64,000 nt of DNA from positions 1 to 64,000 of the IMG/VR virus record IMGVR_UViG_3300025132_007963; one strand, given 5' to 3'. The translations under genes and the position numbers were made by a program. This stretch comes from a virus. The notes under the pieces were generated by a model. That model saw only the letters and a list, made by a program, of their open reading frames with translations, had not been told where the DNA came from and did no database searches. This document shows positions 2,187 to 16,635 of this stretch, piece by piece. Positions within the stretch are counted from its first letter, which is position 1; every line of letters begins with the position of its first letter.

Positions 2187-2255
2187 GTGATGTACTCCAA
2201 AATTGAGCGTTTAAGTAGCGGGGGCGCCTTATTGCTTCCCTCACTTTCTTTATAC

Positions 2256-2340
2256 ATTATAGGGGAAAGTGTCCCCGATTGCAAGAAAAAAAAGCACAAA
2301 AAGTGAAAAATCGTACTTTCTTAATGATCTCAAGGACTTA
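2256..2340 (-). promoter_or_regulatory. Early promoter cassette (38-bp class)
   Basis: TTGCAA(2279-84)-17-TATAAT(2256-61); motif AATGATCTCAAGGACTTA at 2323-2340. Confidence 0.85.
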
Positions 2341-2529
2341 GAGCGTGTCATAATCCTCGAGGGCCGTCTCTCTGAGTAGTTCCGTTGATTCGTCATCATA
2401 ACAGGCAAACCCGCGACCTTCCAACCACTCTATAAGCTCATCGCGATTCATGCTCTCAATTCGTCCGCGCTCGGTATAGATGAATCGTCCGGTGTGTGTT
2501 TCTGCGTATGGCATTTGATGCGCTCCCAT
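2338..2529 (-). CDS. Hypothetical acidic early protein
   Basis: 63-aa ORF; its TAA is the end of the IHF-like motif. Confidence 0.6.
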   Translation of the reverse strand: MGAHQMPYAETHTGRFIYTERGRIESMNRDELIEWLEGRGFACYDDESTELLRETALEDYDTL

Positions 2530-2569
2530 AAAATTATTAATTAATAGATTCTCGAATGATTACAAGGGT

Positions 2570-2842
2570 TTAGCCGTCAATGACGTCTGCGTGTTGCCTT
2601 GCGTAGCCTACATGTTTTGATGTGGTCATGGACTGGAAGCCATGGCGACCGCTGGCGCTATAGTCTCGTAATACCTTAACACCGCGTGCGGTTTTGGGGT
2701 CTTCTACGGTGTCACCGATTAACAGCGCGTAAGAGTACAAGCGCTGGCCGTCGGTCCAAAACTGGCCCCCGTGGTTGCTGGCGGCTTCATTGTGTCGCCA
2801 ATGCTCGGCAACGTTTCGGGTCTGGGTTTTCTTCAATCGCAT
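2570..2842 (-). CDS. Hypothetical early protein (LYSY motif); start corrected to MRLKKTQ
   Basis: SD AAAGGA before ATG 2842; longer track ORF runs through the promoter. Confidence 0.7.
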   Translation of the reverse strand: MRLKKTQTRNVAEHWRHNEAASNHGGQFWTDGQRLYSYALLIGDTVEDPKTARGVKVLRDYSASGRHGFQSMTTSKHVGYARQHADVIDG

Positions 2843-2875
2843 GGGGTGTCCTTTCGTTTCCTCGATTGTGTAAAC

Positions 2876-2960
2876 ATTATACGAAAACACCGGGGAAAAG
2901 TCAACAAAAAAAAGCAAAAAAAGTGAAAAAACGTAAAAAGTTAATGATTTCAAGGCGTTA
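2876..2960 (-). promoter_or_regulatory. Early promoter cassette (38-bp class)
   Basis: TTGACT(2899-2904)-17-TATAAT(2876-81); motif AATGATTTCAAGGCGTTA at 2943-2960. Confidence 0.85.
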
Positions 2961-3191
2961 GCCGTCAAAATCAACGTCGTGGATAGGGTTTCCCCATTGG
3001 CACACAAATTGATCGATTCGATCCTGGCTCAAAGCGTCGTGGTCATGGCGCCCTGCCTCGAAAAAAGGAATCAAGGACACGGGCACACCTAGAGATAGAG
3101 CGCTTCCAACTAGAGCGCCGGCACGGTGACACACACCAAGCTCCCATGCGTCGTCTTCATGCTCAACGTGAAATTTCATCCAATCGTTCAT
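2958..3191 (-). CDS. Hypothetical early protein
   Basis: 77-aa ORF, SD AAGGA, promoter upstream. Confidence 0.65.
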   Translation of the reverse strand: MNDWMKFHVEHEDDAWELGVCHRAGALVGSALSLGVPVSLIPFFEAGRHDHDALSQDRIDQFVCQWGNPIHDVDFDG

Positions 3192-3226
3192 GCTGTTTTA
3201 TCCTTTTCGTTCTTGGTTATGCATGC

Positions 3227-3255
3227 ATAATAGCATGCTTGGCCGTAGCCGTCAA
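3227..3255 (-). promoter_or_regulatory. sigma70 promoter without a clear upstream motif
   Basis: TTGACG-17-TATTAT with upstream A/T tracts. Confidence 0.7.
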
Positions 3256-3403
3256 GTACTTTTTAAAGAAAAAAGCAAAAAAAATTCGCGGCGAAAACCG
3301 CCGCAATATCCGGAGGCTCCCAACTTCCCCCGGCTGAACATAGCCTTAACGCTTACGCAACCACAAGCGGATCCGCTTTCTGGCCTATGCTCCCCACTAG
3401 ATG

Positions 3404-3634
3404 TTAACCGTTCAATGCCTCGCGAGCATTCACACCGGTTAAAACGTGCTTTGCTCCATCATTCATAATGATATGAGAACAAACAAGGCCCGGTCTCCGC
3501 TGCTCAAGCCCAATGGCCTTGATGTGATGCGGTGCAATGCCATGTTCAATCTCGAATGCGATCTGTCTGCTCAATTGCTGGCTCAATTGCAACATCTCTT
3601 TTTTCTTCTCTTGGATTGTCATTTTTCTCTGCAC
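3404..3634 (-). CDS. Hypothetical early protein
   Basis: 76-aa ORF downstream of promoter 3722-3750. Confidence 0.55.
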   Translation of the reverse strand: MQRKMTIQEKKKEMLQLSQQLSRQIAFEIEHGIAPHHIKAIGLEQRRPGLVCSHIIMNDGAKHVLTGVNAREALNG

Positions 3635-3721
3635 TTTCTTTTTTTTCCGTGGATGTTTTTTTGTTCATCCGGATTATCGTTGCTAGGTCCCACATATTTT
3701 TGTTTCCTTCATCGTGTATAT

Positions 3722-3806
3722 ACTATCGCACGATTTTTTGTTGGCGTCAAGAAAAAAAATGCTTTTTTTTAAAAAAAATGATTAATCCAATAAATTCCTA
3801 GACTTA
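3722..3806 (-). promoter_or_regulatory. Early promoter cassette (38-bp class, degenerate motif)
   Basis: TTGACG(3745-50)-17-GATAGT; AATAAATTCCTAGACTTA at 3789-3806. Confidence 0.6.
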
Positions 3807-3968
3807 GCGATTTTATAAATCATAACAAGCTCGATAACCTTAAGCGCAATATATAGACTACTAAACACCAGAAAGAAAAACATCATTTAAACAACCCCAC
3901 AATCTTATGACCAATACTCATGACACCCTCAACGCCGATGGCATCACCTAACAAAAAACAAAAAACAC

Positions 3969-4205
3969 CTACAAACAAGTATTGCATTGCACCGCCTTCA
4001 TATTATCCTTATGCACTAAGATGCGCTCGCCATTAGTAGTTAGCACTTTGAATACCTCACCAAAATTAATCAACTTGTATCCAGACTGGCCACGTTTTGC
4101 TAAGCCAAGTACAAGCCCGTAACGCCCATGAAAAAAGATTCGCTCAGCTGGTTTAGCGCTGGACCAATCCCAGATCTGAATCATATCACCTTTTTTTACT
4201 TGCAC
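3969..4205 (-). CDS. KOW/SH3-like mini-protein
   Basis: MQVKKGDMIQI...GLVL...VKV. Confidence 0.7.
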   Translation of the reverse strand: MQVKKGDMIQIWDWSSAKPAERIFFHGRYGLVLGLAKRGQSGYKLINFGEVFKVLTTNGERILVHKDNMKAVQCNTCL

Positions 4206-4404
4206 TGAGCACCTTATCTACTGCAAATATCGAAACCTTGCGACCCTCTGCAGTCATCCATGAGCATGCTGGTTTGCAGTCATGACGGAAATGCACAACC
4301 AGATTACGCACCGTTGATTCGGGGTGACCTGGATGCATCATCTCACGTGCTAACACAATACCCTCATAGCCGCCGCGAACCTCTATTAAATCACCGACTT
4401 TCAT
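4186..4404 (-). CDS. KOW/SH3-like mini-protein
   Basis: MKVGDLIEV...GIVL...VVHF. Confidence 0.7.
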   Translation of the reverse strand: MKVGDLIEVRGGYEGIVLAREMMHPGHPESTVRNLVVHFRHDCKPACSWMTAEGRKVSIFAVDKVLSASKKR

Positions 4405-4591
4405 TGATCACCTCTAAGTCATAATTCCAGACATTATGCCCTATTGTACCATCTTGCCATGAAATGTCAAACACTTTATTACTAGATGTGACACCGCATA
4501 GTGGATCAAACACTTCTCGGAGAATCACACCAAGCCTCTCTTCAGCTTTGCGGTTTGGATAGATATCCTTAATCATATCACCGATTTTCAT
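4391..4591 (-). CDS. KOW/SH3-like mini-protein
   Basis: MKIGDMIK...GVIL...ISW...LEVINESR. Confidence 0.7.
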   Translation of the reverse strand: MKIGDMIKDIYPNRKAEERLGVILREVFDPLCGVTSSNKVFDISWQDGTIGHNVWNYDLEVINESR

Positions 4592-4706
4592 ATGTCCCCT
4601 TATGCTTTATTTTTCGAGTATACTTTTTTTTGTCACGATGAGCTTTAACGCCACCACCATGACGTAACACCAGCGCAACGGCATATGGATTTCTGATCTG
4701 TTTCAT
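4578..4706 (-). CDS. 42-aa basic protein MKQIRNPYAVALVLRHGGGVKAHRDKKKYTRKIKHKGTYENR
   Basis: Hand-translated; SD AGGAG; first gene after promoter 4735-4763. Confidence 0.75.
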   Translation of the reverse strand: MKQIRNPYAVALVLRHGGGVKAHRDKKKYTRKIKHKGTYENR

Positions 4707-4734
4707 TTCCGTTGCTCCTCTCGACTACTTTTAA

Positions 4735-4819
4735 AGTATCGCACAAAAAAAATTTTCGCGCAAGAAAAAAATCGCGAAATCGACAAAAAAATGAAATCCC
4801 GAATAATATCAAGTACTTG
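4735..4819 (-). promoter_or_regulatory. Early promoter cassette (38-bp class)
   Basis: TTGCGC(4758-63)-17-GATACT; AATAATATCAAGTACTTG at 4802-4819 contains a perfect WATCAANNNNTTR. Confidence 0.75.
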
Positions 4820-5051
4820 CGTCTTGTGCATCTTTTATATGATTTTGCTCATAAACTGATGATAACACAAAGACAATCGATGCTTCTTCTAGTGATAAGT
4901 TTTCATCTTCTAGCTTTTGGTGTATCTTTTCCTCATCATCGACGTTTAAGATATACCATGCTAACCTTTTCAACTTAGGCTTGTTTTTATGATAGTCCTC
5001 TCTAGTCACTTGATAGTGTCTCTGCAAACTCATACACATAGGACATTGCAT
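4809..5051 (-). CDS. Hypothetical protein
   Basis: 80-aa ORF ending inside the IHF-like motif. Confidence 0.5.
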   Translation of the reverse strand: MQCPMCMSLQRHYQVTREDYHKNKPKLKRLAWYILNVDDEEKIHQKLEDENLSLEEASIVFVLSSVYEQNHIKDAQDAST

Positions 5052-5157
5052 ATATACTGGTTACAAATACTAAACCAATTGTAGCGCAACTAATATCGAT
5101 TAATTTATTTTTAACGTATCTCTTCATGTAATAATTATATTATGATTCTTTTTTTAT

Positions 5158-5421
5158 TTAATCGATCCGTCGCTTAAGTGGGTCATAACAAACGTGATCT
5201 TCAAAACAATCGCGAAGACGACGATAAACAATATCATCGGCATCTCTACAATAAGGCCTCTCATAATAGCCGGCTGGATCGCAGATTGTTAATGTAACAG
5301 TGCCGGTGGTAGTTTTATCACAGTAGTACTTTGTTTCTTTATATTCCATGTCCGTGGGGTCGCAAAAGCTAGCATCACAAGCAACCGATAAACACGCGAT
5401 GACAAAACAAATAATTTTCAT
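5158..5421 (-). CDS. Small Cys-rich putative lipoprotein (start corrected to MKIICFVIACLSVAC)
   Basis: Signal-peptide-like N-terminus with lipobox-like SVAC, multiple Cys. Confidence 0.6.
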   Translation of the reverse strand: MKIICFVIACLSVACDASFCDPTDMEYKETKYYCDKTTTGTVTLTICDPAGYYERPYCRDADDIVYRRLRDCFEDHVCYDPLKRRID

Positions 5422-5425
5422 GCTA

Positions 5426-5575
5426 TTATTCCTTAGTTTCCTCAAACTTATCTTTCTCAAGCTCAACAACATCAACATCAAACTGTGTGTTGGTGCGATA
5501 CATAGAATATTTTTGGCCCTTTGTAACCATACGACGCTTGAGTGATGGGCGCTCGAAACCACTATTCCATCTCAT
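5426..5575 (-). CDS. Hypothetical protein (start MRWNSG)
   Basis: SD AAGGAG before ATG 5575. Confidence 0.5.
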   Translation of the reverse strand: MRWNSGFERPSLKRRMVTKGQKYSMYRTNTQFDVDVVELEKDKFEETKE

Positions 5576-5641
5576 AATATAATACTCCTTTTGTTTAAGT
5601 GTCAGACATACTAACACAAAAAATGTTTTTTTAAAATAGAA

Positions 5642-5833
5642 TTATTTATTGTTGTAGAATTTTTCCCAGCTAGTCTCAAAAGTATAGTGCAATGCCGTCA
5701 TGATGACGACAAAGGTTGCAGTCATGACAAGAGATCTTTGTATCTCCCCTAGAAACATATATGTTATCCCTACGCCTACCGTCGTAGATAAAACACGCCA
5801 TGCTATAACCTTTCGCACTATATCTTTTTTCAT
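5642..5833 (-). CDS. DUF2061-like small membrane protein
   Basis: K..AWR....T...and HY.FE..W motifs, two TM helices. Confidence 0.7.
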   Translation of the reverse strand: MKKDIVRKVIAWRVLSTTVGVGITYMFLGEIQRSLVMTATFVVIMTALHYTFETSWEKFYNNK

Positions 5834-5836
5834 ATG

Positions 5837-6046
5837 CTAGGTATTCTCGCCCTTTGGTGATGGGAATCTGCTATGGTCACCCATACCATCATAATCAGTT
5901 ATATCATTTGCACGCTCAATTCTTTTTACATCGCTATATTTTGATGTCGTAAGAGATTTAAACGTACTCCTTAACATAAGTATGATACTAGATGTGCCAA
6001 ACACCATGGTAAATACTTTTACAAACTCTAGTAAATTACTTGACAT
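5837..6046 (-). CDS. Small membrane-anchored protein (DYDGMGDHSRF motif)
   Basis: N-terminal TM segment, SD AGGAG. Confidence 0.6.
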   Translation of the reverse strand: MSSNLLEFVKVFTMVFGTSSIILMLRSTFKSLTTSKYSDVKRIERANDITDYDGMGDHSRFPSPKGENT

Positions 6047-6048
6047 AT

Positions 6049-6219
6049 CTACTCCTTGTAATGATTAGCCAGACCCATCAAAGTAGGCGCCCAAAGACCG
6101 ATAAAAATACCAAACCTTTCTGCATGTGCTGGGTCGCCGTCGCCAGCTGTTACCCATGCTCCAATTGAACACGCAACCGATGCCAATGAGGCAAAGAAAC
6201 AAAACTTAGACAAATTCAT
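6049..6219 (-). CDS. 56-aa two-TM protein (ERFGIFIGLWAPTLMG)
   Basis: Hand-translated; SD AAGGA. Confidence 0.65.
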   Translation of the reverse strand: MNLSKFCFFASLASVACSIGAWVTAGDGDPAHAERFGIFIGLWAPTLMGLANHYKE

Positions 6220-6251
6220 ATTAACTTTCCTTTCTTAATAAAATATGATTG

Positions 6252-6324
6252 TGGGCCACCCCGGACTCGAACCGGGAACCAGCGGATTAAAAGTCCGATG
6301 CGCTGCCAATTGCGCCAGTAGCCC
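6252..6324 (-). tRNA. tRNA-Lys(UUU)
   Basis: Cloverleaf GGGCTAC/GTGGCCC, anticodon loop CTTTTAA, TTCGA T-loop; no encoded CCA. Confidence 0.95.
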
Positions 6325-6374
6325 CCATGGTGGCCTTTTATCGTGACGTGCCAAGGTCACTTTTTTATTTGTAC

Positions 6375-6461
6375 CTACTTCTTTGAAGGAGGGTTGTTAT
6401 CTCTACCACCACCACTAGGGTTACCAGTAGTGGATGGCCATCCACCGTTATTGTTACTCAT
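6375..6461 (-). CDS. 28-aa peptide MSNNNGGWPSTTGNPSGGGRDNNPPSKK
   Basis: Hand-translated; ATGA-coupled to upstream micro-ORF. Confidence 0.6.
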   Translation of the reverse strand: MSNNNGGWPSTTGNPSGGGRDNNPPSKK

Positions 6462-6553
6462 GGACTGTAATCCCAGTCTTCAAAATAACCAAAGTCTTCG
6501 TAATAATCTTCATCATCACTTCGACCGGGTACGCTACATACGAACTTATTCAT
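6458..6553 (-). CDS. 31-aa acidic/aromatic peptide MNKFVCSVPGRSDDEDYYEDFGYFEDWDYSP
   Basis: Hand-translated; SD GGAGG. Confidence 0.6.
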   Translation of the reverse strand: MNKFVCSVPGRSDDEDYYEDFGYFEDWDYSP

Positions 6554-6636
6554 ATTATAATCCTCCATGATTGTTAGAATAAGCGTGGTTTATTTAAAGA
6601 CAATTTCCACAAAATGTCTTGTCTATCTGCGAGTGA

Positions 6637-6825
6637 TCAGCTCCGGATAGGTTGACGAAACAGTGAGCAAATAGAACAAGGCTCTGCCCCAAACATATTT
6701 GCTATCAGTTCACCGCTTGCAAGAGCCGCTGGCTCCTGTAGGCATACGCGTTTTTCCACTTTTCTGACGGTTCCCCTTGCTATTTCGATTTGCTTACTAT
6801 AGCACAAAATCCCCTTGTGCGTCAA
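6637..6825 (-). CDS. Hypothetical protein
   Basis: 62-aa ORF in operon context. Confidence 0.4.
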   Translation of the reverse strand: MTHKGILCYSKQIEIARGTVRKVEKRVCLQEPAALASGELIANMFGAEPCSICSLFRQPIRS

Positions 6826-6833
6826 GTAATATT

Positions 6834-7028
6834 TTATTTAAATTCAATAATTTTTGCCTCCGTATTAAACTCTCCCCTAACGAGGAAAATCTCCGGATCA
6901 CCATCTGTAAATCTAGCCTTGACCACATGATTAATGTGTTGTGGCTGATATGTATCTGGCGCAGTCATGGTTTTGAACTCTACGACAATTCCAACTCTGC
7001 TTCCATGCTTTACCGTTTTTCCTACCAT
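6834..7028 (-). CDS. KOW/SH3-like mini-protein
   Basis: VGKTVKH...VGIVVE...VKARF. Confidence 0.6.
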   Translation of the reverse strand: MVGKTVKHGSRVGIVVEFKTMTAPDTYQPQHINHVVKARFTDGDPEIFLVRGEFNTEAKIIEFK

Positions 7029-7357
7029 GATATGTTCCTTTCTACATAAATATCATATTCGCAAGGATCGCCCTCACGTTGGACATCATCATCAGATTCG
7101 CCCACAATTACCATTCCAAACTCGCCGGTGTTGTCATTTAGCTGACTGAGAAAATTATTAAACAGCTCAATTTCTGGATAGCATTCATACCACTTGATGC
7201 TATCCCAGAATATCTTATTTGTATCTTTGTATTCGTTCACATCTGCATCTCTAAACAACTCCTTAAGATTTTCATTGCCAGAAAGCTCGACGTATGCCGC
7301 CAATGCTTCAAATACATTGTCATTCATACCAATACAGACTTGAGATCTATAACCCAT
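7022..7357 (-). CDS. Phage hypothetical protein (MGYRS... / VIVGE.DDD family)
   Basis: Recognisable termini typical of phage early proteins. Confidence 0.7.
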   Translation of the reverse strand: MGYRSQVCIGMNDNVFEALAAYVELSGNENLKELFRDADVNEYKDTNKIFWDSIKWYECYPEIELFNNFLSQLNDNTGEFGMVIVGESDDDVQREGDPCEYDIYVERNISW

Positions 7358-7535
7358 TACTTACACCCCTTACACACATAACCGCCCCACTCTGGCTTTC
7401 TTGCATTAGGGAAGTATTCATTGCAATACAGGCAATCGATGCCATAGATGGTTTCACCATTATAATAACCTGTTTCTCTATCAAACTGTAGTCTATTTGA
7501 CCTTTGAATAAATCTAATTCTAGCCTTACCTGCCA

Positions 7536-7736
7536 TTATCGACCTATACCCCGTGCCATACTGGTTGAACTAACATATTGATATGCACCTTTATTATAAG
7601 CTGGAGCTGTACACTTAGCCTTTCGAGCTGCTTCAATCCTAGCATTGGCAGCACCGCACTCCAAGCACGTCTTATAACCTAACGCTTTACGCTTTGGACT
7701 GTACTCTTCCCAACACTCAACACAAACGGCAACCAT
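7536..7736 (-). CDS. C4 zinc-finger protein, DksA/TraR-like finger
   Basis: CVEC-x11-GYKTCLEC plus C-terminal PAYNKGAYQY. Confidence 0.65.
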   Translation of the reverse strand: MVAVCVECWEEYSPKRKALGYKTCLECGAANARIEAARKAKCTAPAYNKGAYQYVSSTSMARGIGR

Positions 7737-7781
7737 TATCTATCCTTTCTTGACAGCGTGACGATATCAGTGACAATACGG

Positions 7782-7970
7782 TCACGTTCTTCCTTTGGAT
7801 ATGAAGACAGAATCGCTAACCTTTTGGCTTCTGGAAATTCTATTAGGTGCTCTGCTACCTTGCGTATATGTCTGGGGGTCCATTCCGATAGTCTGATATA
7901 GTTCTCCCTCATTTAAATTTCCTTCCAATGCATTTTTAATATATTGCGCGAAGCGTTGTCTCGGGTTCAT
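7782..7970 (-). CDS. Hypothetical early protein (start MNPRQRF)
   Basis: SD GAGGGA, directly after promoter 7994-8022. Confidence 0.6.
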   Translation of the reverse strand: MNPRQRFAQYIKNALEGNLNEGELYQTIGMDPQTYTQGSRAPNRISRSQKVSDSVFISKGRT

Positions 7971-7993
7971 GTTTTCCCTCACTTTCTTTATAC

Positions 7994-8067
7994 ATCATAC
8001 AAAATCTGGGCGATAAAATCAAGAAAAAAATGAAAAATCGTAAAAGTTCAATAATTTCGAGAGGTTA
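7994..8067 (-). promoter_or_regulatory. Early promoter cassette (27-bp class)
   Basis: TTGATT(8017-22)-17-TATGAT; AAAAATCGTAAAAG; AATAATTTCGAGAGGTTA at 8050-8067. Confidence 0.85.
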
Positions 8068-8236
8068 CGAGTTCTAAACTAATTTTGTTGTGCCATAAAA
8101 CTGAACTATATCGAGTGTTCCACTTAACACAAACATCGTTATTATCGCATTTAATAATGAGACCAAAGAATTTTTTATGTACACGATCAGATATATACTT
8201 GCTTTCCCTATATCTTACAATATCACCGACTTTCAC
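8048..8236 (-). CDS. KOW/SH3-like mini-protein
   Basis: (M)KVGDIVRY...GLII...VKW. Confidence 0.75.
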   Translation of the reverse strand: MKVGDIVRYRESKYISDRVHKKFFGLIIKCDNNDVCVKWNTRYSSVLWHNKISLELVTSRNY

Positions 8237-8378
8237 TGACTACCTCTGTATCATCCCTGTGAACTCGGTACTCTCCATCAGGGAAGAGAACATAAAACCC
8301 GAAAGGAATAATCCTAGTGATAATACCAAGGGTTAGCTGGGGTTGACTTACTTGTCTTACCAAATCACCGACGTTCAC
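8223..8378 (-). CDS. KOW/SH3-like mini-protein (start GTG 8378)
   Basis: (M)NVGDLVR...GII...EVVSESR. Confidence 0.7.
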   Translation of the reverse strand: MNVGDLVRQVSQPQLTLGIITRIIPFGFYVLFPDGEYRVHRDDTEVVSESR

Positions 8379-8541
8379 TGATAACCTCCAGTGAATCTGA
8401 ACAGTGGTTGAAATGTTCACCATTCATATCAAGCCAAGCAACTTGGCAATAGTCAATATCAACATACGTTCGGACCACAATGCCGATGGCGCGGTGCTCT
8501 TTTGGCATATCGTTGTGTGTTACCAAATCACCGACTTGCAC
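8365..8541 (-). CDS. KOW/SH3-like mini-protein (start GTG 8541)
   Basis: (M)QVGDLVT...GIVV...VAW...LEVISERR. Confidence 0.7.
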   Translation of the reverse strand: MQVGDLVTHNDMPKEHRAIGIVVRTYVDIDYCQVAWLDMNGEHFNHCSDSLEVISERR

Positions 8542-8737
8542 TGATAACCTCCAGGTCATGATCCCATTCAGCTATGGTAGTACCAAGCCCATTCCACTTT
8601 ACATAGAGGACGTTACAATGATACTTACCATTGTCACCGGCTGGGCCGGTGACAATCCCTATCGTGCGGTGACGTAGATCGCCCATGGTTCGTTCGCCTA
8701 TCCACTTCACCAGACTGCCCATCTTTAGATGTTCCAT
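8528..8737 (-). CDS. KOW/SH3-like mini-protein
   Basis: KMGSLVKW...GIVT...VKW...LEVISASR. Confidence 0.7.
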   Translation of the reverse strand: MEHLKMGSLVKWIGERTMGDLRHRTIGIVTGPAGDNGKYHCNVLYVKWNGLGTTIAEWDHDLEVISASR

Positions 8738-8790: not shown

Positions 8791-9720
8791 TCAACCACTA
8801 CTTATGATTCTCCTGTACTCAAAGAGTGCCAGTTCTTTCTTTTTACATTCTAGCATCATATCGTAATTATGTCCATAGTTTTCTACAGGATTATATATAT
8901 AATCTGAGTGTGCTTGCGGCCTAATCTTGTTATCTCGCTGTTCCTCTGCTCTAGATTCTGATAAATGCACAACAGGTACAACATCTTCTGGCCAGGTAGA
9001 CATGGCTAGAGTTAACGCTTGTTCCTCAGTCTGGCCACCTGTACAGAAACGATGGTGATGATAATCAAATACAATTGGCACACCAGTCTCTTGATGAATG
9101 TAATCGTGAAGATGCTTTGTGGACCACATGCTTGCTTTATCATCATTTTCTAGTGTCAGTCTCTTTTGGCAATTCTTATCCAGCCTCTTAAATGCTTTAC
9201 ACCAACGCTTGGCGGTGCCTTCAAAGTCTCCACCGTATGTACCACCGACATGAATATTAATCTTATTATAGTGACTGGCGTTAATAAAACCCATCATATC
9301 AAATATCTCAGAATGAGAGTTTAGCTCTTTAACTGCTTTATCAATAACACTTTGCTTTGGCGAGCCAAGTACATTAAATGGCCCAGGATGGAATGTAAGC
9401 CTTTGCCCTGTTTGGTACGCATACTCGCCCGCAATATCAAGATTGTATATAATATCATTGTAGTCGGGTAACTCCGAAAATTTGTATTCAGACATCCACG
9501 GGAAAATATCCGAAGACATGCGATAAAAATCAATACCGTTTTGATTATTCCACTTCAATATCTTTAATAGGTCTTTCACGTTTTGCAATGAAATCTCGGA
9601 TGCATATGCAATACCTTTGGATGCGAACGTTCTCTTTATCATAGACCTGTTGGTTGTAATGCGCCTAGATTTAGGAACATCAGATAGTGTCATGTTGATA
9701 CATGCATAGCCAAGTTTCAT
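8791..9720 (-). CDS. uvsE: UV-damage endonuclease (UvsE/UvdE family)
   Basis: MKLGYACIN, FYRMSSDIFP, RLTFHPGPF, INIHVGG, LTLENDDK, FDYHHH, HSDY, MLECKKKE motifs. Confidence 0.93.
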   Translation of the reverse strand: MKLGYACINMTLSDVPKSRRITTNRSMIKRTFASKGIAYASEISLQNVKDLLKILKWNNQNGIDFYRMSSDIFPWMSEYKFSELPDYNDIIYNLDIAGEYAYQTGQRLTFHPGPFNVLGSPKQSVIDKAVKELNSHSEIFDMMGFINASHYNKINIHVGGTYGGDFEGTAKRWCKAFKRLDKNCQKRLTLENDDKASMWSTKHLHDYIHQETGVPIVFDYHHHRFCTGGQTEEQALTLAMSTWPEDVVPVVHLSESRAEEQRDNKIRPQAHSDYIYNPVENYGHNYDMMLECKKKELALFEYRRIISSG

Positions 9721-10211: not shown

Positions 10212-10284
10212 ATTATTACATTGAAACCCAAAAAAGTCAATGAAAAAACACAAGATTTCAAAAATCAATAATTTCAAGAACTTA
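10212..10284 (-). promoter_or_regulatory. Early promoter cassette (26-bp gap)
   Basis: TTGACT(10235-40)-17-AATAAT with TG extension; AATAATTTCAAGAACTTA at 10267-10284. Confidence 0.8.
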
Positions 10285-10433: not shown

Positions 10434-10748
10434 TTATGTTTTATCTCCATGCAGCCTTCTTACGTTCTTTAAAAAATCTTTTGCTTTCTTTGGTACGTGA
10501 CCGGGTTTAACTCTCTCTATTATATCTAAACTTGGTTCGCAAAACTCACCGTTATCAGGCAAATATATTAATGGCTTACCAAAACCAACATCTACCCTAA
10601 CAACAATGCCCAAATTACCTTTTGCTTCATAATCAAAGACATCATAGCTCTCTGTAAACTTAACCATCTCTCCACGTACTAAAAATTCTTCTTGTTTAAT
10701 AGCTAGGTTTGACACTTTCGATAGTTTCCTTTTTGTAAAAGTCTCCAT
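10434..10748 (-). CDS. KOW/SH3-like protein
   Basis: RGEMVKF...LGIVVR; true start probably internal. Confidence 0.55.
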   Translation of the reverse strand: METFTKRKLSKVSNLAIKQEEFLVRGEMVKFTESYDVFDYEAKGNLGIVVRVDVGFGKPLIYLPDNGEFCEPSLDIIERVKPGHVPKKAKDFLKNVRRLHGDKT

Positions 10749-10912
10749 CTTCTACCATTCCACCAATTGATTTGCCCTATCTTATTTAAGACCAAGACAT
10801 CTCCCAAATGAGGATTAACTCTTAATACAACACCGTGGTCTAAAAGCTCCTCATCGAAAGTAGAATTTTGTATCAGATAACAGACAACTAAATCACCTTT
10901 CTCTATATGCAC
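10703..10912 (-). CDS. KOW/SH3-like mini-protein
   Basis: EKGDLVV...GVVLR. Confidence 0.65.
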   Translation of the reverse strand: MHIEKGDLVVCYLIQNSTFDEELLDHGVVLRVNPHLGDVLVLNKIGQINWWNGRRWRLLQKGNYRKCQT

Positions 10913-10933
10913 ATAACTAATTAGCTACCAGAG

Positions 10934-12121
10934 CTACTCAATAGCAATGATTCTCTCGTTGGTCGAGAAGTACGGACGGCTAGCATGTTCTGGTGTAGTC
11001 ATCCACATACGCTGACACTTACTAGCCTTTGGTTTTGGAGCGTACAGATCTGTTAGCACAATGTGGCCATCGAATTCGCGATCATTCACATAATCAGTCG
11101 GTGGATTAAAATCAGTACCACCACACATAACACGCTCCCAGCTGCGTCTTTCGCCCTTCTTCCAAGTGTAAACGAGACTTTCATCCACCTTGGTATCAAA
11201 AGGGATGACTGTGAATTCTGCCAGAGCTGAGAGCTTGTTTAGCTCAGCAAAAAACTTAGCTAGCATAACATCATCAACAGACCCAGACTGATCAATACTA
11301 ATTGCAACCTTAGCAACTCGATTAATCTTACGGCCAGGATGTACATATGCATAACGTCGATTAATTCTCTTGATTGAAGATGTCTTGTTGGACCTCTGAG
11401 ACGTCTTGATAAAGTAACGCAATACTTTTTTCCAGTCTACCTTTGTCTGTAGACTATCCATAATTTTACGTTTACACTCTGATGTAACACTGCCCCAGTT
11501 TCTATTCTTTGATGCTGTCTCGGCAGCAGACTTAACAATTTCCTTAAGTCGTTCCTTCGCTATCTCCTTTACCTGTGCATCAGTCTCACCCCAACCTGAG
11601 TGATCATCCAGTGGCTCCATACCGCTAGTAGGCTCTGAGCTATCATCCGGGTCACCATCACCAGAACCACCACTACTCTCAAAGTCTTCTGGCAGGTTTT
11701 CCATATACCATTCAGCAGACATGCCGGATGGTAAATCTTCAAATGGAGTGCCTTCTTTGCCTGGAATCAGGCCACCTTCTGGTAAATTGTTAAGGTGACT
11801 ATTGATTGCAAGATCTGTAGCGATATTCCATCGCTTAGTCATCTTGCCTTCTGGCATTCTCTCAGTCACATGCATGAAGATAATGTGGTAAAACTCATGC
11901 TTCAAAACATCTAGTCTCTCAAGGTCATTAAGACCGCCGAAGAACTCTGGATTATAGAACATCTCAAACTGAGCTGTATCAGGATTGACCCTAACACCGG
12001 CAGTAGGGATGCTCAATGAGACACGCTTATCGATACGACGCGAGATAGCTGCAAAGAAAGGCTCTTCCATTAAGAGCCTAGCGGTATGCATATTGAGATT
12101 GAAATCAGTATTAGCCTTCAT
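10934..12121 (-). CDS. Putative metallopeptidase plus VWA-like domain protein (DUF2201 type)
   Basis: HEFYH (HExxH), ATDLAINS, acidic linker, IDQSGS (DxSxS), GGTDF, LTD. Confidence 0.85.
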   Translation of the reverse strand: MKANTDFNLNMHTARLLMEEPFFAAISRRIDKRVSLSIPTAGVRVNPDTAQFEMFYNPEFFGGLNDLERLDVLKHEFYHIIFMHVTERMPEGKMTKRWNIATDLAINSHLNNLPEGGLIPGKEGTPFEDLPSGMSAEWYMENLPEDFESSGGSGDGDPDDSSEPTSGMEPLDDHSGWGETDAQVKEIAKERLKEIVKSAAETASKNRNWGSVTSECKRKIMDSLQTKVDWKKVLRYFIKTSQRSNKTSSIKRINRRYAYVHPGRKINRVAKVAISIDQSGSVDDVMLAKFFAELNKLSALAEFTVIPFDTKVDESLVYTWKKGERRSWERVMCGGTDFNPPTDYVNDREFDGHIVLTDLYAPKPKASKCQRMWMTTPEHASRPYFSTNERIIAIE

Positions 12122-13160
12122 TCTTTTCACCACCAAGAATTTCTACCAAAAAGTCTACAATACCTTCTGCGCCGTGCAGCTTGATTGTGTTCTTCATTTC
12201 ACCATTGCCAAGAACAGTCCACAGCTTCATTGCAACCTCAGATGGTAAAGAGGTAAAGTACTTTGCCAGGTTATCAATCTGCTCTTCAGGAAGTTCTTCC
12301 TGAAAAGAATCTGCAGCATCAAACTTCTCAATCAAAGCAGTGTGATCATTGATACCAAATGATTGAACTTTTGAAAAGTCACCCTTGATCAAGATATCCT
12401 CTGGCGTAACTTGCCTATCATAATTGGCAATAAAATCATTGAAGGCAACTGCAGCCTCTAAACCAACGAATGCAGCTGACAAATTAAACAACGTAGGGCT
12501 AGCCTCTTGCAATAGATCTGCGGACTGCAGACACGTGTTTAGGCGCTCCCATGACCGTCGAGAAGGGTAAACCTTGTTTGGTTCAAAGTCTTCATTGTGC
12601 TCAAGATGAGAACGATTATTGTTGATAAAATCCCACACTTCCTTACCAACATTATCCTTAGCCCATGACAACCAATCCTCGACCGATGGCTCAATATCAA
12701 ATACAGTCCAGCGATCAAGCTCGGCGGGATCCATCTCACCGACTTGATATTGCTCGCCATGTTCACCACCATTGACAGCAGCAAAGATTTGAGTGTCAGG
12801 ATGCAATACATGGCCATTGAGCTTGCGGCTATCTGTTAGCTCAAAGATACCCTGGCGAACCTCTAGCGTTGCACGGTCAATCTCATCAAGAAATAGAATG
12901 ACGGGGTTATCGCATGCATGCTTAAACCAATCTGGTGGGTTAAAGCGAGTGCTATTGCCCTCGATAACAGGAAGGCCAACCAAGTCACCCTCAGTCATCT
13001 GGGAAGCACGGCGCTCAATAACAGTCATGTTAACTATATCAGCGTACTGATACACAACCGTAGACTTACCGATACCGTGGCGCCCACGAAGCAAAACTGG
13101 TTTGCGGACATCAGTCACGAAACCGACAATATTTGTAAACGTCTTGAAGTCAACTGCCAT
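12111..13160 (-). CDS. MoxR/AAA_5-type AAA+ ATPase
   Basis: Walker A GRHGIGKS, Walker B LFLDEIDR, DPAELDRW, PSRRSWE. Confidence 0.88.
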   Translation of the reverse strand: MAVDFKTFTNIVGFVTDVRKPVLLRGRHGIGKSTVVYQYADIVNMTVIERRASQMTEGDLVGLPVIEGNSTRFNPPDWFKHACDNPVILFLDEIDRATLEVRQGIFELTDSRKLNGHVLHPDTQIFAAVNGGEHGEQYQVGEMDPAELDRWTVFDIEPSVEDWLSWAKDNVGKEVWDFINNNRSHLEHNEDFEPNKVYPSRRSWERLNTCLQSADLLQEASPTLFNLSAAFVGLEAAVAFNDFIANYDRQVTPEDILIKGDFSKVQSFGINDHTALIEKFDAADSFQEELPEEQIDNLAKYFTSLPSEVAMKLWTVLGNGEMKNTIKLHGAEGIVDFLVEILGGEKNEG

Positions 13161-13211
13161 GATGTTTCTCCTTTTTTGAATGGCTAAGTTTTTCGTTCAA
13201 CATCTAAAGTA

Positions 13212-13285
13212 AGTATCCCATAGACCGGGACAAAAATCAATAACTTTTTTAAAAATCGTAAAAGCTCAATAATTTCAATCACTTA
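13212..13285 (-). promoter_or_regulatory. Early promoter cassette (27-bp class)
   Basis: TTGATT(13235-40)-17-GATACT; AAAAATCGTAAAAG; AATAATTTCAATCACTTA at 13268-13285. Confidence 0.85.
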
Positions 13286-13845
13286 GATCGTCTTAATTGA
13301 ACCAGCTTTTCAAATGCTTTCTTTTGAAGGGCAGGTATGCTTGTGGTGGACATAATCATTGCTAACTCTTCATTAACATTGGGGTGTTCTAATAGTCTTT
13401 GACACCAGTACTCAGGGCGCTGCCAACTGTTTGTATAGACTTCTCTAGGCCTATAGTAAGATAAGTATATATCTTTTAGTGTCTCGACTGGGGTATTTGG
13501 GACGCCATGAAGCGCCTGGTGATAGGATCCAGCAATAAAAGTTTGACCAACCCTCCATGGGATACGAAAAGAGTGTGTTGTCTGTTCCCATAGCTTAGAG
13601 ATAGTCTCTGGTTGATCGTTTAGATTGCAATACTGTATCATAAGCCATTTAATACTATTCGCCTTACTGTTGGTTAATATATCTATAGCAGATGGTTTCA
13701 ACTCAGGGTTCATGGCCAAGTACTTACGACACAATAGATACTTATGACTAGCTATAGCACATTGCGTCTCTTCATCGATAAATCGATTTTGAGCTAATCC
13801 GTTAAGTTCCTTGTTTGTCATTCTAGGGACAAATTTTGCAAACAT
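13279..13845 (-). CDS. Helical-repeat (LRV/HEAT-like) hypothetical protein
   Basis: LAxNP and LLEHPN repeats. Confidence 0.55.
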   Translation of the reverse strand: MFAKFVPRMTNKELNGLAQNRFIDEETQCAIASHKYLLCRKYLAMNPELKPSAIDILTNSKANSIKWLMIQYCNLNDQPETISKLWEQTTHSFRIPWRVGQTFIAGSYHQALHGVPNTPVETLKDIYLSYYRPREVYTNSWQRPEYWCQRLLEHPNVNEELAMIMSTTSIPALQKKAFEKLVQLRRSK

Positions 13846-13848
13846 GAT

Positions 13849-14064
13849 TTAATTATCCAGTTTTTTGATTTCACCCTCAATGGTGCGAATATAACTAACA
13901 ACCGCAATCATTGCATCGGAAGATAGTATACCTTCATAATTCTCCAAGTGACAAGAATCAATATGAGATTTAAGAATAGCCAAAACCTTATTCAGTCTAA
14001 CTGTTTTTTTTGCTGGTGACCGTAAATCCATACCGGGATATAATTCAAATGGATCGAGTTTCAT
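13849..14064 (-). CDS. Hypothetical early protein
   Basis: 71 aa, SD AAGGAG, after promoter. Confidence 0.65.
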   Translation of the reverse strand: MKLDPFELYPGMDLRSPAKKTVRLNKVLAILKSHIDSCHLENYEGILSSDAMIAVVSYIRTIEGEIKKLDN

Positions 14065-14090
14065 GTTTACTCCTTTTCTGATCTTTTAAA

Positions 14091-14164
14091 ATCATAGCGT
14101 AGAAACTTAAATTTGTCAAACGTTTTTTTAAAAAACGTAAAAATACAATAATTTCAATAACTTA
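14091..14164 (-). promoter_or_regulatory. Early promoter cassette (27-bp class)
   Basis: TTGACA(14114-19)-17-TATGAT; AATAATTTCAATAACTTA at 14147-14164. Confidence 0.88.
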
Positions 14165-14167
14165 AGT

Positions 14168-14350
14168 TTATCTCCCATAAAGAGAATCGACACGTTTTTT
14201 TCTATCTTCCTTCCTCTTTAAAGAAGATACTTCTTTTTTATTTTGCTCGACTAATGAGACAAACCTTGCAACCGAGTAGACCATTAAGATCATTATGAAT
14301 GCATCTAATAAGTTAATTTTAATACCTTCCGTTTGATTTCCACCAGTCAA
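14168..14350 (-). CDS. Small membrane protein
   Basis: One TM segment and a basic tail. Confidence 0.5.
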   Translation of the reverse strand: MTGGNQTEGIKINLLDAFIMILMVYSVARFVSLVEQNKKEVSSLKRKEDRKKRVDSLYGR

Positions 14351-14410
14351 TTAACATTTGGCCTACCCATAAGCCAACTGCAATCGTAATCACACTACCT
14401 AAAAACTCCA

Positions 14411-14635
14411 TTATTTATCTCCTTTGCTCACCATTTTTAGCCACTTTGCCCTAACCACCGAAGGTGTATTATTTTTATTAAACAATACCACACATGAGTA
14501 CTCATCCTTGTGCAAGTTTCTATCTGGAGGTTGATCTACATAGGGATTTACTTCTAAAATAACCGCCAACTCTCCGCAGTTAGGGCTCATTCTATACACG
14601 CATTCTGCTAGGTCACCCTTGCTAAATTCAGTCAT
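14411..14635 (-). CDS. KOW/SH3-like mini-protein (start MTEFSKGDL)
   Basis: KGDLAEC...AVILEV...VVLF. Confidence 0.65.
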   Translation of the reverse strand: MTEFSKGDLAECVYRMSPNCGELAVILEVNPYVDQPPDRNLHKDEYSCVVLFNKNNTPSVVRAKWLKMVSKGDK

Positions 14636-14942
14636 CTTCTTGCTGCTGCCTTTGTCGCTCAAAGTACTTCTTCTTAGAAAAGAATTTTAAATCTGATCTT
14701 AGAAAGTATTTATCCCACCTACGACGACCGGGAGGACCGTTTTTCTCTCCCTCTGGACCAAGCCATTTAACAACATATCCAGTTCGCTTGTGATCCTTGT
14801 AGTAATGGCCATCGCTATAGTACACATCTTTCACTCTTGTTATCATGCCCACCATGTTATCTACATCATGACCACAATGAAACCATATAAAGTTTCTTTT
14901 AAATGCAACACTGGACAAGGTTACTAAATCTCCAGCTTTCAT
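14628..14942 (-). CDS. KOW/SH3-like protein (start MKAGDLV)
   Basis: KAGDLVT...GMIT...VVKW. Confidence 0.7.
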   Translation of the reverse strand: MKAGDLVTLSSVAFKRNFIWFHCGHDVDNMVGMITRVKDVYYSDGHYYKDHKRTGYVVKWLGPEGEKNGPPGRRRWDKYFLRSDLKFFSKKKYFERQRQQQEDD

Positions 14943-14964
14943 CTCTTTCTTTTTTCTTGCCATT

Positions 14965-15675
14965 TTATTTTATCTTCTTTGCTCTTTTAAGGTCTCGCTC
15001 CTCTGCGTAAATAGGCTTTGGATATCCGACTGGTAATATTTTGTATGTCCTGCAGCCTTTTGCACACGTTATCGGCATTTTTGCATTGTCCTCAATAACA
15101 ATCGCATATTGCTCTCTCATGCTGTTTTTAAAGTAAGTATTATTTAGTTTAACTAAACTCATCAATCGATTGATTCTAATCTGTACTTTATCTCCTTTCT
15201 TGAAACGTGGCTCCCTCGTTAGTTCATCAATGATACGTTCTGAATACTTATTCTCACACAGGCTTTGGTATTCCTCGCACGTTAGGTTTTCGTCTGCGTC
15301 AACCTTTGTTCTGGTATTTTTGAAATAAGCACCGTGATCAATCTTAGAGTAAAACTCTGATGCAATCTTAGCGTTTTTCTTTCTCTCTTCACTGTAATCC
15401 CAACTTAAATTGGCATGGTAGCTATTTTGTGAATACTTCTTATTCATTGATAAAAGGTATTGTGACTGAGAGTGTGTGAGAGATTTTACTTTCCCGTATG
15501 CTTGCATGCTTTTAAGAATTTTCATAATATCATCGTGGCTCTTGTTATAGAAAGGGCATGGCAATGATGCACCCATCCATGTTTTAACCTTTTTTATGAC
15601 ATACTCTATTTTATCATCGCTAGACGAGTGATAAAAATATCTTTCATTCTCAAATAACTCAGAACTCATTGACAA
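14965..15675 (-). CDS. Hypothetical protein with C-terminal KOW/SH3-like domain
   Basis: C-terminal RFKKGDKVQI...AIVIE...YKIL. Confidence 0.65.
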   Translation of the reverse strand: MSMSSELFENERYFYHSSSDDKIEYVIKKVKTWMGASLPCPFYNKSHDDIMKILKSMQAYGKVKSLTHSQSQYLLSMNKKYSQNSYHANLSWDYSEERKKNAKIASEFYSKIDHGAYFKNTRTKVDADENLTCEEYQSLCENKYSERIIDELTREPRFKKGDKVQIRINRLMSLVKLNNTYFKNSMREQYAIVIEDNAKMPITCAKGCRTYKILPVGYPKPIYAEERDLKRAKKIK

Positions 15676-15875
15676 TCACCTTCACTTACTACTTCAAACT
15701 CACGTGGACTGTGTAGTTCGGGCTTGCGACCTGGATAGACCACTTTTATTAACCTTCCTGTACCTAAAATGCCGCCTGAACATGCATTTGTGCTTAAACA
15801 AATTGCTACGGCCCTTTTCTGCTGGTGTAGCTGCAGCATACCCCATCGTTTTACAACCAAGTCACCGACTTTCAC
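15666..15875 (-). CDS. KOW/SH3-like mini-protein (start GTG 15875)
   Basis: (M)KVGDLVV...EVVSE. Confidence 0.7.
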   Translation of the reverse strand: MKVGDLVVKRWGMLQLHQQKRAVAICLSTNACSGGILGTGRLIKVVYPGRKPELHSPREFEVVSEGDCQ

Positions 15876-16062
15876 TGATAACCTCCAAGTTTTCTCTAAG
15901 GGACCAAAATGTTCCATACTCGCCATAGTTTACCTTATATGTTTCTAGGCTTGGCTCATCTTCAGGGGCACATGCTACAACGATACCAATGATACCATCA
16001 ACATATGCAACGTTGTAGCGGTTCTTTTTCTTAACAAGAGTTCCAACTTTTATGCTTTTCAT
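15862..16062 (-). CDS. KOW/SH3-like mini-protein
   Basis: KVGTLVK...GIVV...LEVISESR. Confidence 0.7.
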   Translation of the reverse strand: MKSIKVGTLVKKKNRYNVAYVDGIIGIVVACAPEDEPSLETYKVNYGEYGTFWSLRENLEVISESR

Positions 16063-16272
16063 TTAGGAGTTCATTTTCTTTAGTGCTGATACAACCATTG
16101 ATACTGGTTTGGATGCATCAGTGAACAATACTTGACATAATTGATCGGTGTCCTCAAAACATTTAGGTCCAATATTGTATAATAGACCAGGCTTATTACC
16201 ATAAACAACGAGGTCACCAACTTTAATATTTTCCATTTGTTTATCCATTACAATCGTTATCCTCGGTGTCAC
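16063..16272 (-). CDS. KOW/SH3-like mini-protein
   Basis: IKVGDLVV...GLL...VLF. Confidence 0.65.
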   Translation of the reverse strand: MTPRITIVMDKQMENIKVGDLVVYGNKPGLLYNIGPKCFEDTDQLCQVLFTDASKPVSMVVSALKKMNS

Positions 16273-16520
16273 AGTAAGTTTTGCTTAATCCAGTTAAAGA
16301 CTTCATTGGAAACGACAAGTCTATCATTTTCGTCATCCATACATCGATGCTCATTGGCCTCCAGAACCTTTCTGATACCAACAAATACCCTTTCATCCCT
16401 GTATGTTGGATCGTCAATAATAGAAGTATTGTGAGGTGTGAAGCCTCTAATTTCGGAGTGTACTGTATTTTGCACCCACTCTATACCTCTCTCCGTTACT
16501 TCGTTCTTTTCTTCAGTCAC
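16269..16520 (-). CDS. Hypothetical early protein
   Basis: 83 aa, SD AGGAG, after promoter. Confidence 0.65.
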   Translation of the reverse strand: MTEEKNEVTERGIEWVQNTVHSEIRGFTPHNTSIIDDPTYRDERVFVGIRKVLEANEHRCMDDENDRLVVSNEVFNWIKQNLL

Positions 16521-16561
16521 AAAAAACTCCTTTCTTTATGTTTCCTCGATGTGACTTATAT

Positions 16562-16635
16562 ATAATACAAAATCTCATGATCAAAATCAAGAAAAAAATA
16601 AAAAATCGTAAAAGTTTAATAATTTCAAGGGTTTA
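16562..16635 (-). promoter_or_regulatory. Early promoter cassette (27-bp class)
   Basis: TTGATT(16585-90)-17-TATTAT; AAAAATCGTAAAAG; AATAATTTCAAGGGTTTA at 16618-16635. Confidence 0.85.

Follow-up and report, generated by a model that had tools for sequence, protein, structure and literature searches.

The early region of an uncultured marine phage, covered by the first 64 kb (hereafter the window) of the linear, 192,821-bp IMG/VR virus record IMGVR_UViG_3300025132_007963 (37% guanine plus cytosine, GC), contains a series of sigma70-type promoters preceded by one and the same short motif. Our results support that this motif, an 18-mer that spans 21 bp when its conserved flanks are counted, is a discrete, conserved and oriented DNA element tied to early sigma70-type promoters. 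Judged from sequence, it is a predicted docking site for a bending protein of the integration host factor (IHF) type, supplied by a non-enteric host, and reused as a portable upstream promoter module, a reading to which we assign a probability of roughly 0.55.

In the window, the motif, TAAGTNCTTGAAATYATT on the sense strand, lies upstream of nine minus-strand sigma70-type promoters located between 2.3 and 16.6 kb, each with a 17-bp spacer. On that strand, TAAGTNCTTGAAATYATT is followed in every cassette by a T-rich segment and then by the -35 and -10 boxes, which are exactly 17 bp apart. These promoters had been pointed out in a first reading of the sequence (the original prediction), and pattern scans recovered them. 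The pattern AATRATWTCAA-N4-TTR has six exact plus-strand matches (2943, 4802, 10267, 13268, 14147 and 16618) against 0.05 expected, a number reached in none of 100 shuffles, and allowing one mismatch adds 2323, 2555 and 8050. The weak copy at 3789 is taken as real, since the closest relative, L083, has kept the same variant at ~19630. Re-measuring the distance between motif and -35 box returned the same values as before, 38, 38, 38 and 38 bp in the four proximal cassettes and 27, 26, 27, 27 and 27 bp in the five distal ones. The core regular expression, a cassette profile and the family weight matrix, applied to the whole 192,821-bp record, found no copy in the other 175 kb beyond the early region; thus the claim that middle-region promoters lack the motif holds.

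The four proximal cassettes, like the distal ones, are oriented on the minus strand. In c2323 (2256-2340), the 18-mer TAAGTCCTTGAGATCATT (2323-2340) is followed by a 38-bp spacer with T tracts, the -35 box TTGCAA (2279-2284), the 17-bp spacer and the -10 box TATAAT (2256-2261). The same layout with a 38-bp spacer is found in c2943 (2876-2960; 18-mer TAACGCCTTGAAATCATT at 2943-2960, TTGACT at 2899-2904, TATAAT at 2876-2881), in the weak copy c3789 (3722-3806; TAAGTCTAGGAATTTATT at 3789-3806, TTGACG at 3745-3750, GATAGT at 3722-3727) and in c4802 (4735-4819; CAAGTACTTGATATTATT at 4802-4819), whose core is weak (TTGCGC at 4758-4763 and GATACT at 4735-4740, 7/12). Spacers of 27 bp are present in c8050 (7994-8067; TAACCTCTCGAAATTATT at 8050-8067, TTGATT at 8017-8022, TATGAT at 7994-7999), in c13268 (13212-13285; TAAGTGATTGAAATTATT at 13268-13285, TTGATT at 13235-13240, GATACT at 13212-13217), which lies ahead of an AAA_5/DUF2201 gene pair and has the second weak core (8/12), in c14147 (14091-14164; TAAGTTATTGAAATTATT at 14147-14164, TTGACA at 14114-14119, TATGAT at 14091-14096) and in c16618 (16562-16635; TAAACCCTTGAAATTATT at 16618-16635, TTGATT at 16585-16590, TATTAT at 16562-16567), while c10267 (10212-10284; TAAGTTCTTGAAATTATT at 10267-10284, TTGACT at 10235-10240, AATAAT at 10212-10217) has a 26-bp spacer. 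The motif-bearing promoters of the window have weaker cores, in which TGn is mostly absent, and their motif-less neighbours at 17688, 4470, 3255 and 6825 combine TTGAC with an extended -10 box. The weaker cores fit a dependence on an upstream helper, although the numbers are small.

Several of these cassettes are related by descent. c2323 and c2943 are 82% identical over 60 nt (subfamily D1), c8050 and c16618 are 87% identical over 68 nt (subfamily D2), and c13268 forms a third paralogous pair with c14147. The spacer string AAAAATCGTAAAAG is repeated exactly at 8033, 13251 and 16601, as the original prediction had it for three copies, and a second string, AAAAAACGTAAAAA, is exact at 2927 and 14131. 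The two spacing classes of the window coincide with the paralogous cassette subfamilies and, therefore, the window alone cannot separate selection on spacing from recent duplication.

This ambiguity was addressed with 44 related marine phage loci, retrieved with the AAA_5 gene that lies behind c13268, in which promoters were defined as distinct sites matching TTGAC-N16-18-TAnnnT. The gene strand of these loci contains 351 distinct promoters versus 56 on the opposite strand, and the motif is present at 45 of the 351, in contrast to none of the 56 opposite-strand sites and none of the shuffled controls. The family logo, S-TAAGT-N-CYB-GARATYATT-RA, amounts to ~23 bits, and conservation stops abruptly at the 5' end of the motif. 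The distances to the -35 box are trimodal (14-17, 26-28 and 38 bp, averaging 15.2, 26.7 and 38.0, respectively), with a step of 11.4 bp and a best-fitting period of 11.5-12 bp. The spacers themselves are unrelated in sequence, with A tracts in most relatives and T tracts in the window phage; the composition would fit UP elements, one to three A or T tracts lying between motif and -35 box, and the 15-, 27- and 38-bp classes hold one, two and three of these A/T-tract modules, respectively. At the orthologous promoter ahead of the AAA_5 gene the gap varies from 14 to 27 bp among phages, or the motif is absent. This variation, together with the unrelated spacers, indicates that spacing is not only inherited. 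Likewise, the L083 ortholog of c2943 lacks both the 18-mer and the first T-tract module (an indel of ~36 bp). The presence or absence of the motif and the varying gap at orthologous promoters therefore show that the motif is a separable add-on whose distance is constrained to discrete classes. The idea of two classes one helical turn apart thus stands as far as discrete distances of about that size are concerned, but the step corresponds to one A/T-tract module, the window's classes are paralogous subfamilies, and 'one helical turn' is better described as 'one A/T-tract module'. No evidence emerged, either for or against, on the temporal tiers that the original prediction had raised as a possibility for the two classes.

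The same comparisons bear on a rival explanation, in which the motif would be the recombination junction of mobile promoter cassettes, kept for the shuffling of small early genes and with little or no role in transcription. Compared with L083 (one genome pair), the early region is a mosaic of blocks of 67-97% nucleotide identity, with gaps and a relocated block encoding the UV-endonuclease UvdE. This block, at 8791-9720 in the window and 7042-7962 in L083, lies on the opposite side of the AAA_5/DUF2201 pair, which indicates that the early region was rearranged between the two phages. Two edges of the L083 homology blocks fall at the 18-mer, at 8058 (a block start, in c8050) and at 2965, and both the presence or absence of the motif at orthologous promoters and the paralogous subfamilies would be expected of mobile cassettes. 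A precedent exists in the PeSL cassettes of the T4-type phages RB49/phi1, PST/T4 and nt-1/KVP40 (PMC2839356, PMC4122927), which are also repeated in the plastic early region of T4-type phages and are tied to gene gain, loss and shuffling between close relatives, an association that the mosaic seen with L083 may reflect here too. PeSL cassettes share the overall layout found here (PMC4122927), in which a stretch rich in A/T precedes a sigma70 promoter close to the consensus (N17), itself followed by a Shine-Dalgarno sequence and the start codon. In contrast, the upstream module of PeSL cassettes is a terminator stem-loop and that of the window a non-palindromic 21-bp motif resembling a protein site; a stable hairpin adjoins the motif on its upstream side in 2 of 51 copies, and the defining stem-loop is absent. 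In addition, a recombination junction leaves unexplained the three discrete gaps with unrelated spacers, the fixed orientation, the sharp 21-bp conservation in otherwise diverged cassettes, and the copies found in the iteron arrays of unrelated phages. We consider this explanation quite improbable.

The distribution of the motif is indeed much broader than this phage group. An exact scan of IMG/VR with a 20-mer pattern retrieved at least 118 contigs, against 49 for the reversed-pattern control (a complete scan), and the narrow form TAAGT.CTTGAAATCATTGA occurs 55 times versus 3 for its control. Positions left unconstrained in the pattern are non-random in the matches listed (92% have T at position 9, 98% have A at position 12 and 80% have C at position 15). 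The motif-bearing contigs, at least 118, range from 21 to 67% GC, and no protein family is common to them, none being present in more than 10 loci of the 118 listed. Therefore, the proposal of a regulon private to this phage is abandoned, as the motif is common to many unrelated phages. A first scan of viral contigs with a different pattern, GAAATTATT-N4-TTTTACG, had given single matches at chance level only.

Among the IMG/VR matches listed, the motif occurs at promoters with the same gap classes, in tandem copies, in inverted pairs with a fixed gap of 14-15 bp, and in dense arrays. The densest array, in L113 (IMGVR_UViG_3300027917_000019, 1100-2900), holds 22 copies in ~1.7 kb of non-coding DNA, with many inverted pairs separated by 14-15 bp whose arms extend to AAATTCCCTAATGAT / ATCATTAGGGAATTT, and is like a miniature inverted-repeat transposable element or an origin. 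L169 contains two sets of at least four tandem copies. Copies abut tRNA genes in L206, L167 and L276, the L206 copy following the tRNA gene after 1 nt. Three or more repeated 8-mers are present in the motif flanks at 40% of sites versus 12.5% of control sites. Among isolates, Rhizobium phage RHph_N65 has two copies within a GGCGGAGAT iteron array directly after a helicase/primase gene, and in Myxococcus phage Mx1 an intergenic region flanked by repeats holds two copies in tandem; in both genomes the motif is confined to that one locus. The motif is also found in Rhizobium phage Palo. Bacterial chromosomes are not enriched: the exact degenerate pattern gave 2 single matches in 401 Gammaproteobacteria and, with one mismatch, there were 7 matches in 101 Bacteroidota and 9 in 121 Alphaproteobacteria, all as single or double copies. 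One alphaproteobacterial copy lies directly beside a tRNA gene, and at one locus two copies are arranged in tandem. In another phage group (L104, L184, L205 and L211), the motif lies 16-17 bp upstream of a TTGACA located in the loop of a GGGGGG/CCCCCC hairpin, the -35 box being thus embedded in a stem-loop.

Several explanations at the level of protein or RNA were tried and rejected. Conservation of a coding sequence does not fit, as the upstream open reading frames (ORFs) stop at many registers relative to the motif (-14, -5, -1, 1, 2, 5, 9, 18, 21, 32 and 35). For a hairpin, terminator or bulged stem in RNA, the folds of eight window copies are inconsistent, and those of the 51 family copies are no better than shuffles (mean z of -0.35 to -0.39); the complementarity of the upstream arm expected for a bulged stem is 5.76 versus 5.72 in the control, and the arms of inverted pairs show no compensatory changes. 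Only tRNAs exceeded the curated thresholds of Rfam, the other matches being weak and below threshold. By-eye comparison with a second promoter, sites for sigma32, sigma28 or sigma54, FNR, Fur, Fis, Lrp, CRP, the DnaA box and the MotA box gave no fit.

A looser RNA-level role is that of a signal in read-through transcripts at the 3' end of the upstream cistron, either a processing site, a hairpin-free terminator or a boxA-like antitermination signal. The promoter-linked copies are all co-oriented with transcription and start at or near the upstream stop codon, the L206 copy lies directly 3' of a tRNA gene, and there may be a loose likeness to the rRNA boxA of Gram-positive bacteria. Nevertheless, the spacing between motif and stop codon ranges between -14 and +35 while that to the -35 box is discrete, there is neither a structure signal nor an Rfam family, and copies are present in both orientations in arrays and also lie in iteron regions that look non-transcribed. 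An RNA element is therefore a very improbable explanation.

A 21-bp oriented site shared by unrelated phages, and located in iteron arrays, next to tRNA genes and at promoters, is what would be expected of a host architectural protein, and IHF is a known protein with exactly this trio of contexts (origins, tRNA/att-like sites and promoters). IHF acts at lambda att, lambda pL and Mu Pe. The contexts of IHF-assisted promoters and origins (lambda pL, Mu Pe, pSC101, R6K and P1) are the same as those of the motif, namely strong phage early promoters, iteron arrays and tRNA/att-like sites, the IHF sites of the pSC101, R6K and P1 origins having been described previously (PMC4980987). Compared with the 13-bp IHF consensus WATCARNNNNTTR, whose A-tract geometry is also established (PMC8421141), the nine window copies have 1, 1, 3, 0, 2, 1, 1, 1 and 1 mismatches, that is, 0-1 in 7 of the 9, with the c4802 copy CAAGTACTTGATATTATT matching perfectly. 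The copies of the relatives have one (10 copies), two (19), three (9) or four (1) mismatches. As a measure of chance, random 13-mers compared with the close variant WATCAANNNNTTR have three or fewer mismatches in 5% of trials and two or fewer in <1%. Of the positions read by IHF (A2, T3, C4, A5, R6, T11, T12 and R13), T3, C4, T11, T12 and R13 are conserved in the site family. Positions +23 to +25, the place of the A tract in lambda H', are 77-86% A/T in 97 independent contexts versus ~60% in the background. In the window, the distance between TAAAAG and TCAA is 10 bp, which is also that of lambda H'. The lambda H'-type IHF sites are likewise asymmetric, with one consensus-matching arm and an A/T tract about one turn further.

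Other observations weigh against an IHF-type reader. Position 2 of the consensus is T, not A, in 95 of the 97 copies of the broad set (98%), and A5 (the A of CAR directly after the C) is kept in 92% of the copies of the broad set but in just 47% of those of the window's clade. Both TAAGT and ATYATT form blocks more conserved than indirect readout by the Escherichia coli IHF should require; a copy of the L113 array, TAAGTATGCGGAATCATT, keeps both blocks yet has four mismatches to the consensus when read by eye. With regard to spacing, gaps of 12, 17, 18, 21 and 54 bp are also present, the 11.4-bp step exceeds a helical turn, and the 38-bp class is ~60 degrees out of phase with the 15-bp class. 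Among 50,697 records searched with BLAST, no enterobacterial phage was found to carry the motif, an unexpected outcome for a site read by canonical IHF. The motif therefore differs from usual IHF sites in its fixed T at position 2, in the extra TAAGT and ATYATT blocks and in an information content (~23 bits) far above theirs, in being a repeated portable module placed at three set distances on many promoters of one phage, and in not having been found in enterobacterial phages by that search. Departures from the consensus have a parallel in Desulfovibrio, where functional IHF sites share only 67-78% of it (PMC3897727). Of the IHF-like site originally proposed, the likeness to the consensus, the A/T tract at an H'-like distance and the IHF contexts stand, and the T at position 2 and the additional blocks do not agree with it. 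These departures leave room for a tentative alternative, that the motif is read not by canonical IHF but by an unrecognised, widely conserved, sequence-specific architectural factor, of host or virion origin, for which it would be a pan-phage docking site at origins, att-like sites and portable promoter enhancers.

As to the source of an IHF-type protein, the original prediction had left room for one made by the phage. No match to HU/IHF (PF00216) was found in this record or in five relatives, three of which are rated 100% complete, and a phage-encoded HU/IHF is thus unlikely and was set aside. Pfam and PHROGs scans of 42 early ORFs, and Pfam scans alone of 20 other ORFs, returned no DNA-binding family. 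From these two results, the factor is most likely supplied by the host.

A dedicated regulator unrelated to IHF was also considered, either a monomeric two-domain activator bound at class I-like positions, in the style of MarA/SoxS, or a phage-made factor that, once infection is under way, would shut off or boost early promoters, in the style of phi29 p4; its source could be the host, the virion or early expression. The site has two parts and is asymmetric, with ~23 bits and conserved bases that IHF does not need, and the centres of its two blocks are 11 bp apart, which places both on one face of the helix. Class I sites are those of CRP at -61.5, -71.5 and -82.5 and the class I marboxes of MarA/SoxS/Rob. 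The computed centres of the motif, at about -59.5, -71 and -82.5, fall near these positions. Class I activation likewise involves discrete positions spaced by one turn, depends on orientation and uses sites upstream of the regions contacted by the C-terminal domain of the alpha subunit (alpha-CTD); in contrast, there is no sequence likeness by eye, the step is 11.4 rather than 10-11 bp, and the motif is also found far from promoters. The weaker cores without TG of the motif-bearing window promoters, next to motif-less neighbours with TTGAC and an extended -10 box, and the lack of enrichment in the sampled bacterial genomes would also suit such a regulator. Nevertheless, the motif contigs have no protein family in common, the early proteins have no DNA-binding domain, and a promoter-specific regulator is hard to square with the 21-67% GC spread, the iteron arrays and the tRNA adjacency. 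For a factor made by the phage there is the further difficulty that an immediate-early promoter cannot rely on a protein not yet made. We regard a dedicated regulator as unlikely.

Returning to the IHF-type reading, the motif, its conservation, spacing classes and contexts are observed, whereas we infer which protein binds, that it bends the DNA and in which direction transcription is affected, and the following scheme is proposed. Unrelated phages would use the site in iteron-rich, origin-like regions and at tRNA/att-like positions, and in this phage clade it would have been joined to early promoter cassettes of the sigma70 type, always in the same orientation. The consensus-matching half of the predicted IHF site would face away from the promoter and the A/T-rich arm (TAAAAG) towards it. 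The model assumes a start site 7 nt after the -10 box, a -35 box at -35 to -30 and H'-like geometry, with the bend centre one base 5' of W, a position that we take from the structure of the H' complex. The bend would then be centred near -55, -67 and -78 in the 15-, 27- and 38-bp classes, respectively. In the 15-bp class, the A/T arm of the site would abut the -35 box, leaving no further tract; the 27-bp class would have room for one further A/T tract, a possible contact for the alpha subunit of RNA polymerase, and the 38-bp class for two, equivalent to a full UP-like element. Bending could wrap the upstream DNA onto RNA polymerase, or position the alpha-CTDs, so that early transcription would be boosted or tuned. 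This arrangement resembles that of the 'uber' UP/-35/TGn/-10 early promoters of T4 (PMC2988021), which are also host sigma70 promoters strengthened by A/T-rich upstream tracts and by additional upstream information, and it differs from them in having a discrete site centred at -60 to -83, separable by indels, and in the general absence of TGn.

The early region also contains copies of the motif that are not associated with promoters. All copies listed in the original prediction were confirmed, including an orphan on the minus strand (TAAACCCTTGTAATCATT, 2555-2572) located in a 40-nt gene junction with no promoter behind it, which shares its upstream gene end with c2943 (family D14). Two further copies had been missed, at 1041-1058 (minus strand) and 1091-1108 (plus strand), which form a tail-to-tail pair (1041-1108) around a 32-bp poly-G/C core; the poly-C core and the motif are kept in the relatives G003 (L090) and G005 (L089). 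Beside the pair, within 1041-1500, convincing ORFs are few over ~400 bp, in which the words GTTAA(C)/CGTCAA/GTTGAC recur, and G005 shows the same order of a small gene, a terminator, CGTCAA-type repeats, an inverted copy, the poly-C core and a degenerate copy. This region may be a replication origin or a region boundary. Opposing the minus-strand genes, and 21 bp past the plus-strand copy at 1091, a promoter-like site (TTAACG-N17-TGnTATTAT, 1130-1158, plus strand) is either an antisense promoter or a decayed cassette.

Downstream of the promoters, the 20-nt repeat noted previously, CCCTCACTTTCTTTATACAT, is exact at 2238 and 7976. Its first copy (2238-2257, minus strand; ATGTATAAAGAAAGTGAGGG in the sense orientation) is a start-site or leader block that lies directly 3' of the c2323 -10 box and heads a leader of ~70 nt; in the second (7976-7995, minus strand), GAGGG is the ribosome-binding site of a gene starting near 7964. 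The block (A/G)TATAAAGAAAGTGAGGGAA is kept after the -10 box in three phages, twice in the window and also in L083 (~16360) and L089 (~715), where it also follows motif-bearing promoters. The product of the gene behind c2323 (1914-2186, minus strand) is a 90-amino acid protein with an N-terminal coiled coil and the motif KVSxKGAxSVYGLxRFPVTLYxxQW. Homologs of this protein are encoded close to the motif in L206, L172, L109 and L125. The protein has no Pfam match and is a member of virus-only clusters of unassigned function; it is a candidate DNA-binding protein. A second repeat family, of ~39 nt with a ATCACCGACTTTCACTGATAACCTC core and unrelated to the promoter motif, is located at small-gene junctions (4379-4417, 8211-8249, 8353-8391, 8516-8554 and 15850-15888).

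The phage itself encodes a T4-type Gp23 capsid protein whose closest relatives in isolates are those of Flavobacterium phage immuto, Microcystis phage Mel-JY01 and Rhodothermus phage RM378 (43-49% identity, or 43-53% for the nearest capsid relatives among Flavobacterium, Microcystis and Rhodothermus phages), as well as GroEL, a DnaE-type polymerase and ribonucleotide reductase. Genes are oriented on the minus strand from 2 to 64 kb, and the stretch between 1 and 20 kb contains densely packed small ORFs without assigned function, together with three tRNA genes, as is usual for the early or plastic region of T4-type phages. Neither the Gp23 relatives, which infect diverse hosts, nor mis-binned contigs in metagenome-assembled genomes of several phyla pointed to a single host group, and, for the same purpose, DNA searches against isolate phages gave no match. 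The T4 late-promoter word TATAAATA is not enriched in the whole record (12 and 9 copies versus 13.8 expected per strand) and, therefore, late promoters provide no independent marker of timing. The only match to sigma-70 region 2 in the record is a faint one near 142 kb.

Phage early promoters with an IHF site upstream are already known, as are the UP-rich early promoters of T4 (PMC2988021) and the PeSL cassettes (PMC2839356, PMC4122927). Literature searches with the motif strings returned nothing relevant, and we did not find a description of the extended motif, of its modular use at three distances or of its spread over uncultured phages and phages of Rhizobium and Myxococcus. The 21-bp motif is a practical marker of early promoters in this marine far-T4 clade and of candidate origins in many uncultured phages, and its presence in cultivable systems (Rhizobium phages RHph_N65 and Palo, and Myxococcus phage Mx1) opens it to direct binding tests. 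If the binder is confirmed, these promoters would constitute a natural series for the cooperation between a bend and UP-like tracts, with the same site at about -55, -67 and -78 and zero, one or two extra tracts. The consistent way in which the motif deviates from the consensus of E. coli IHF could point to either a non-enteric IHF specificity or a new factor.

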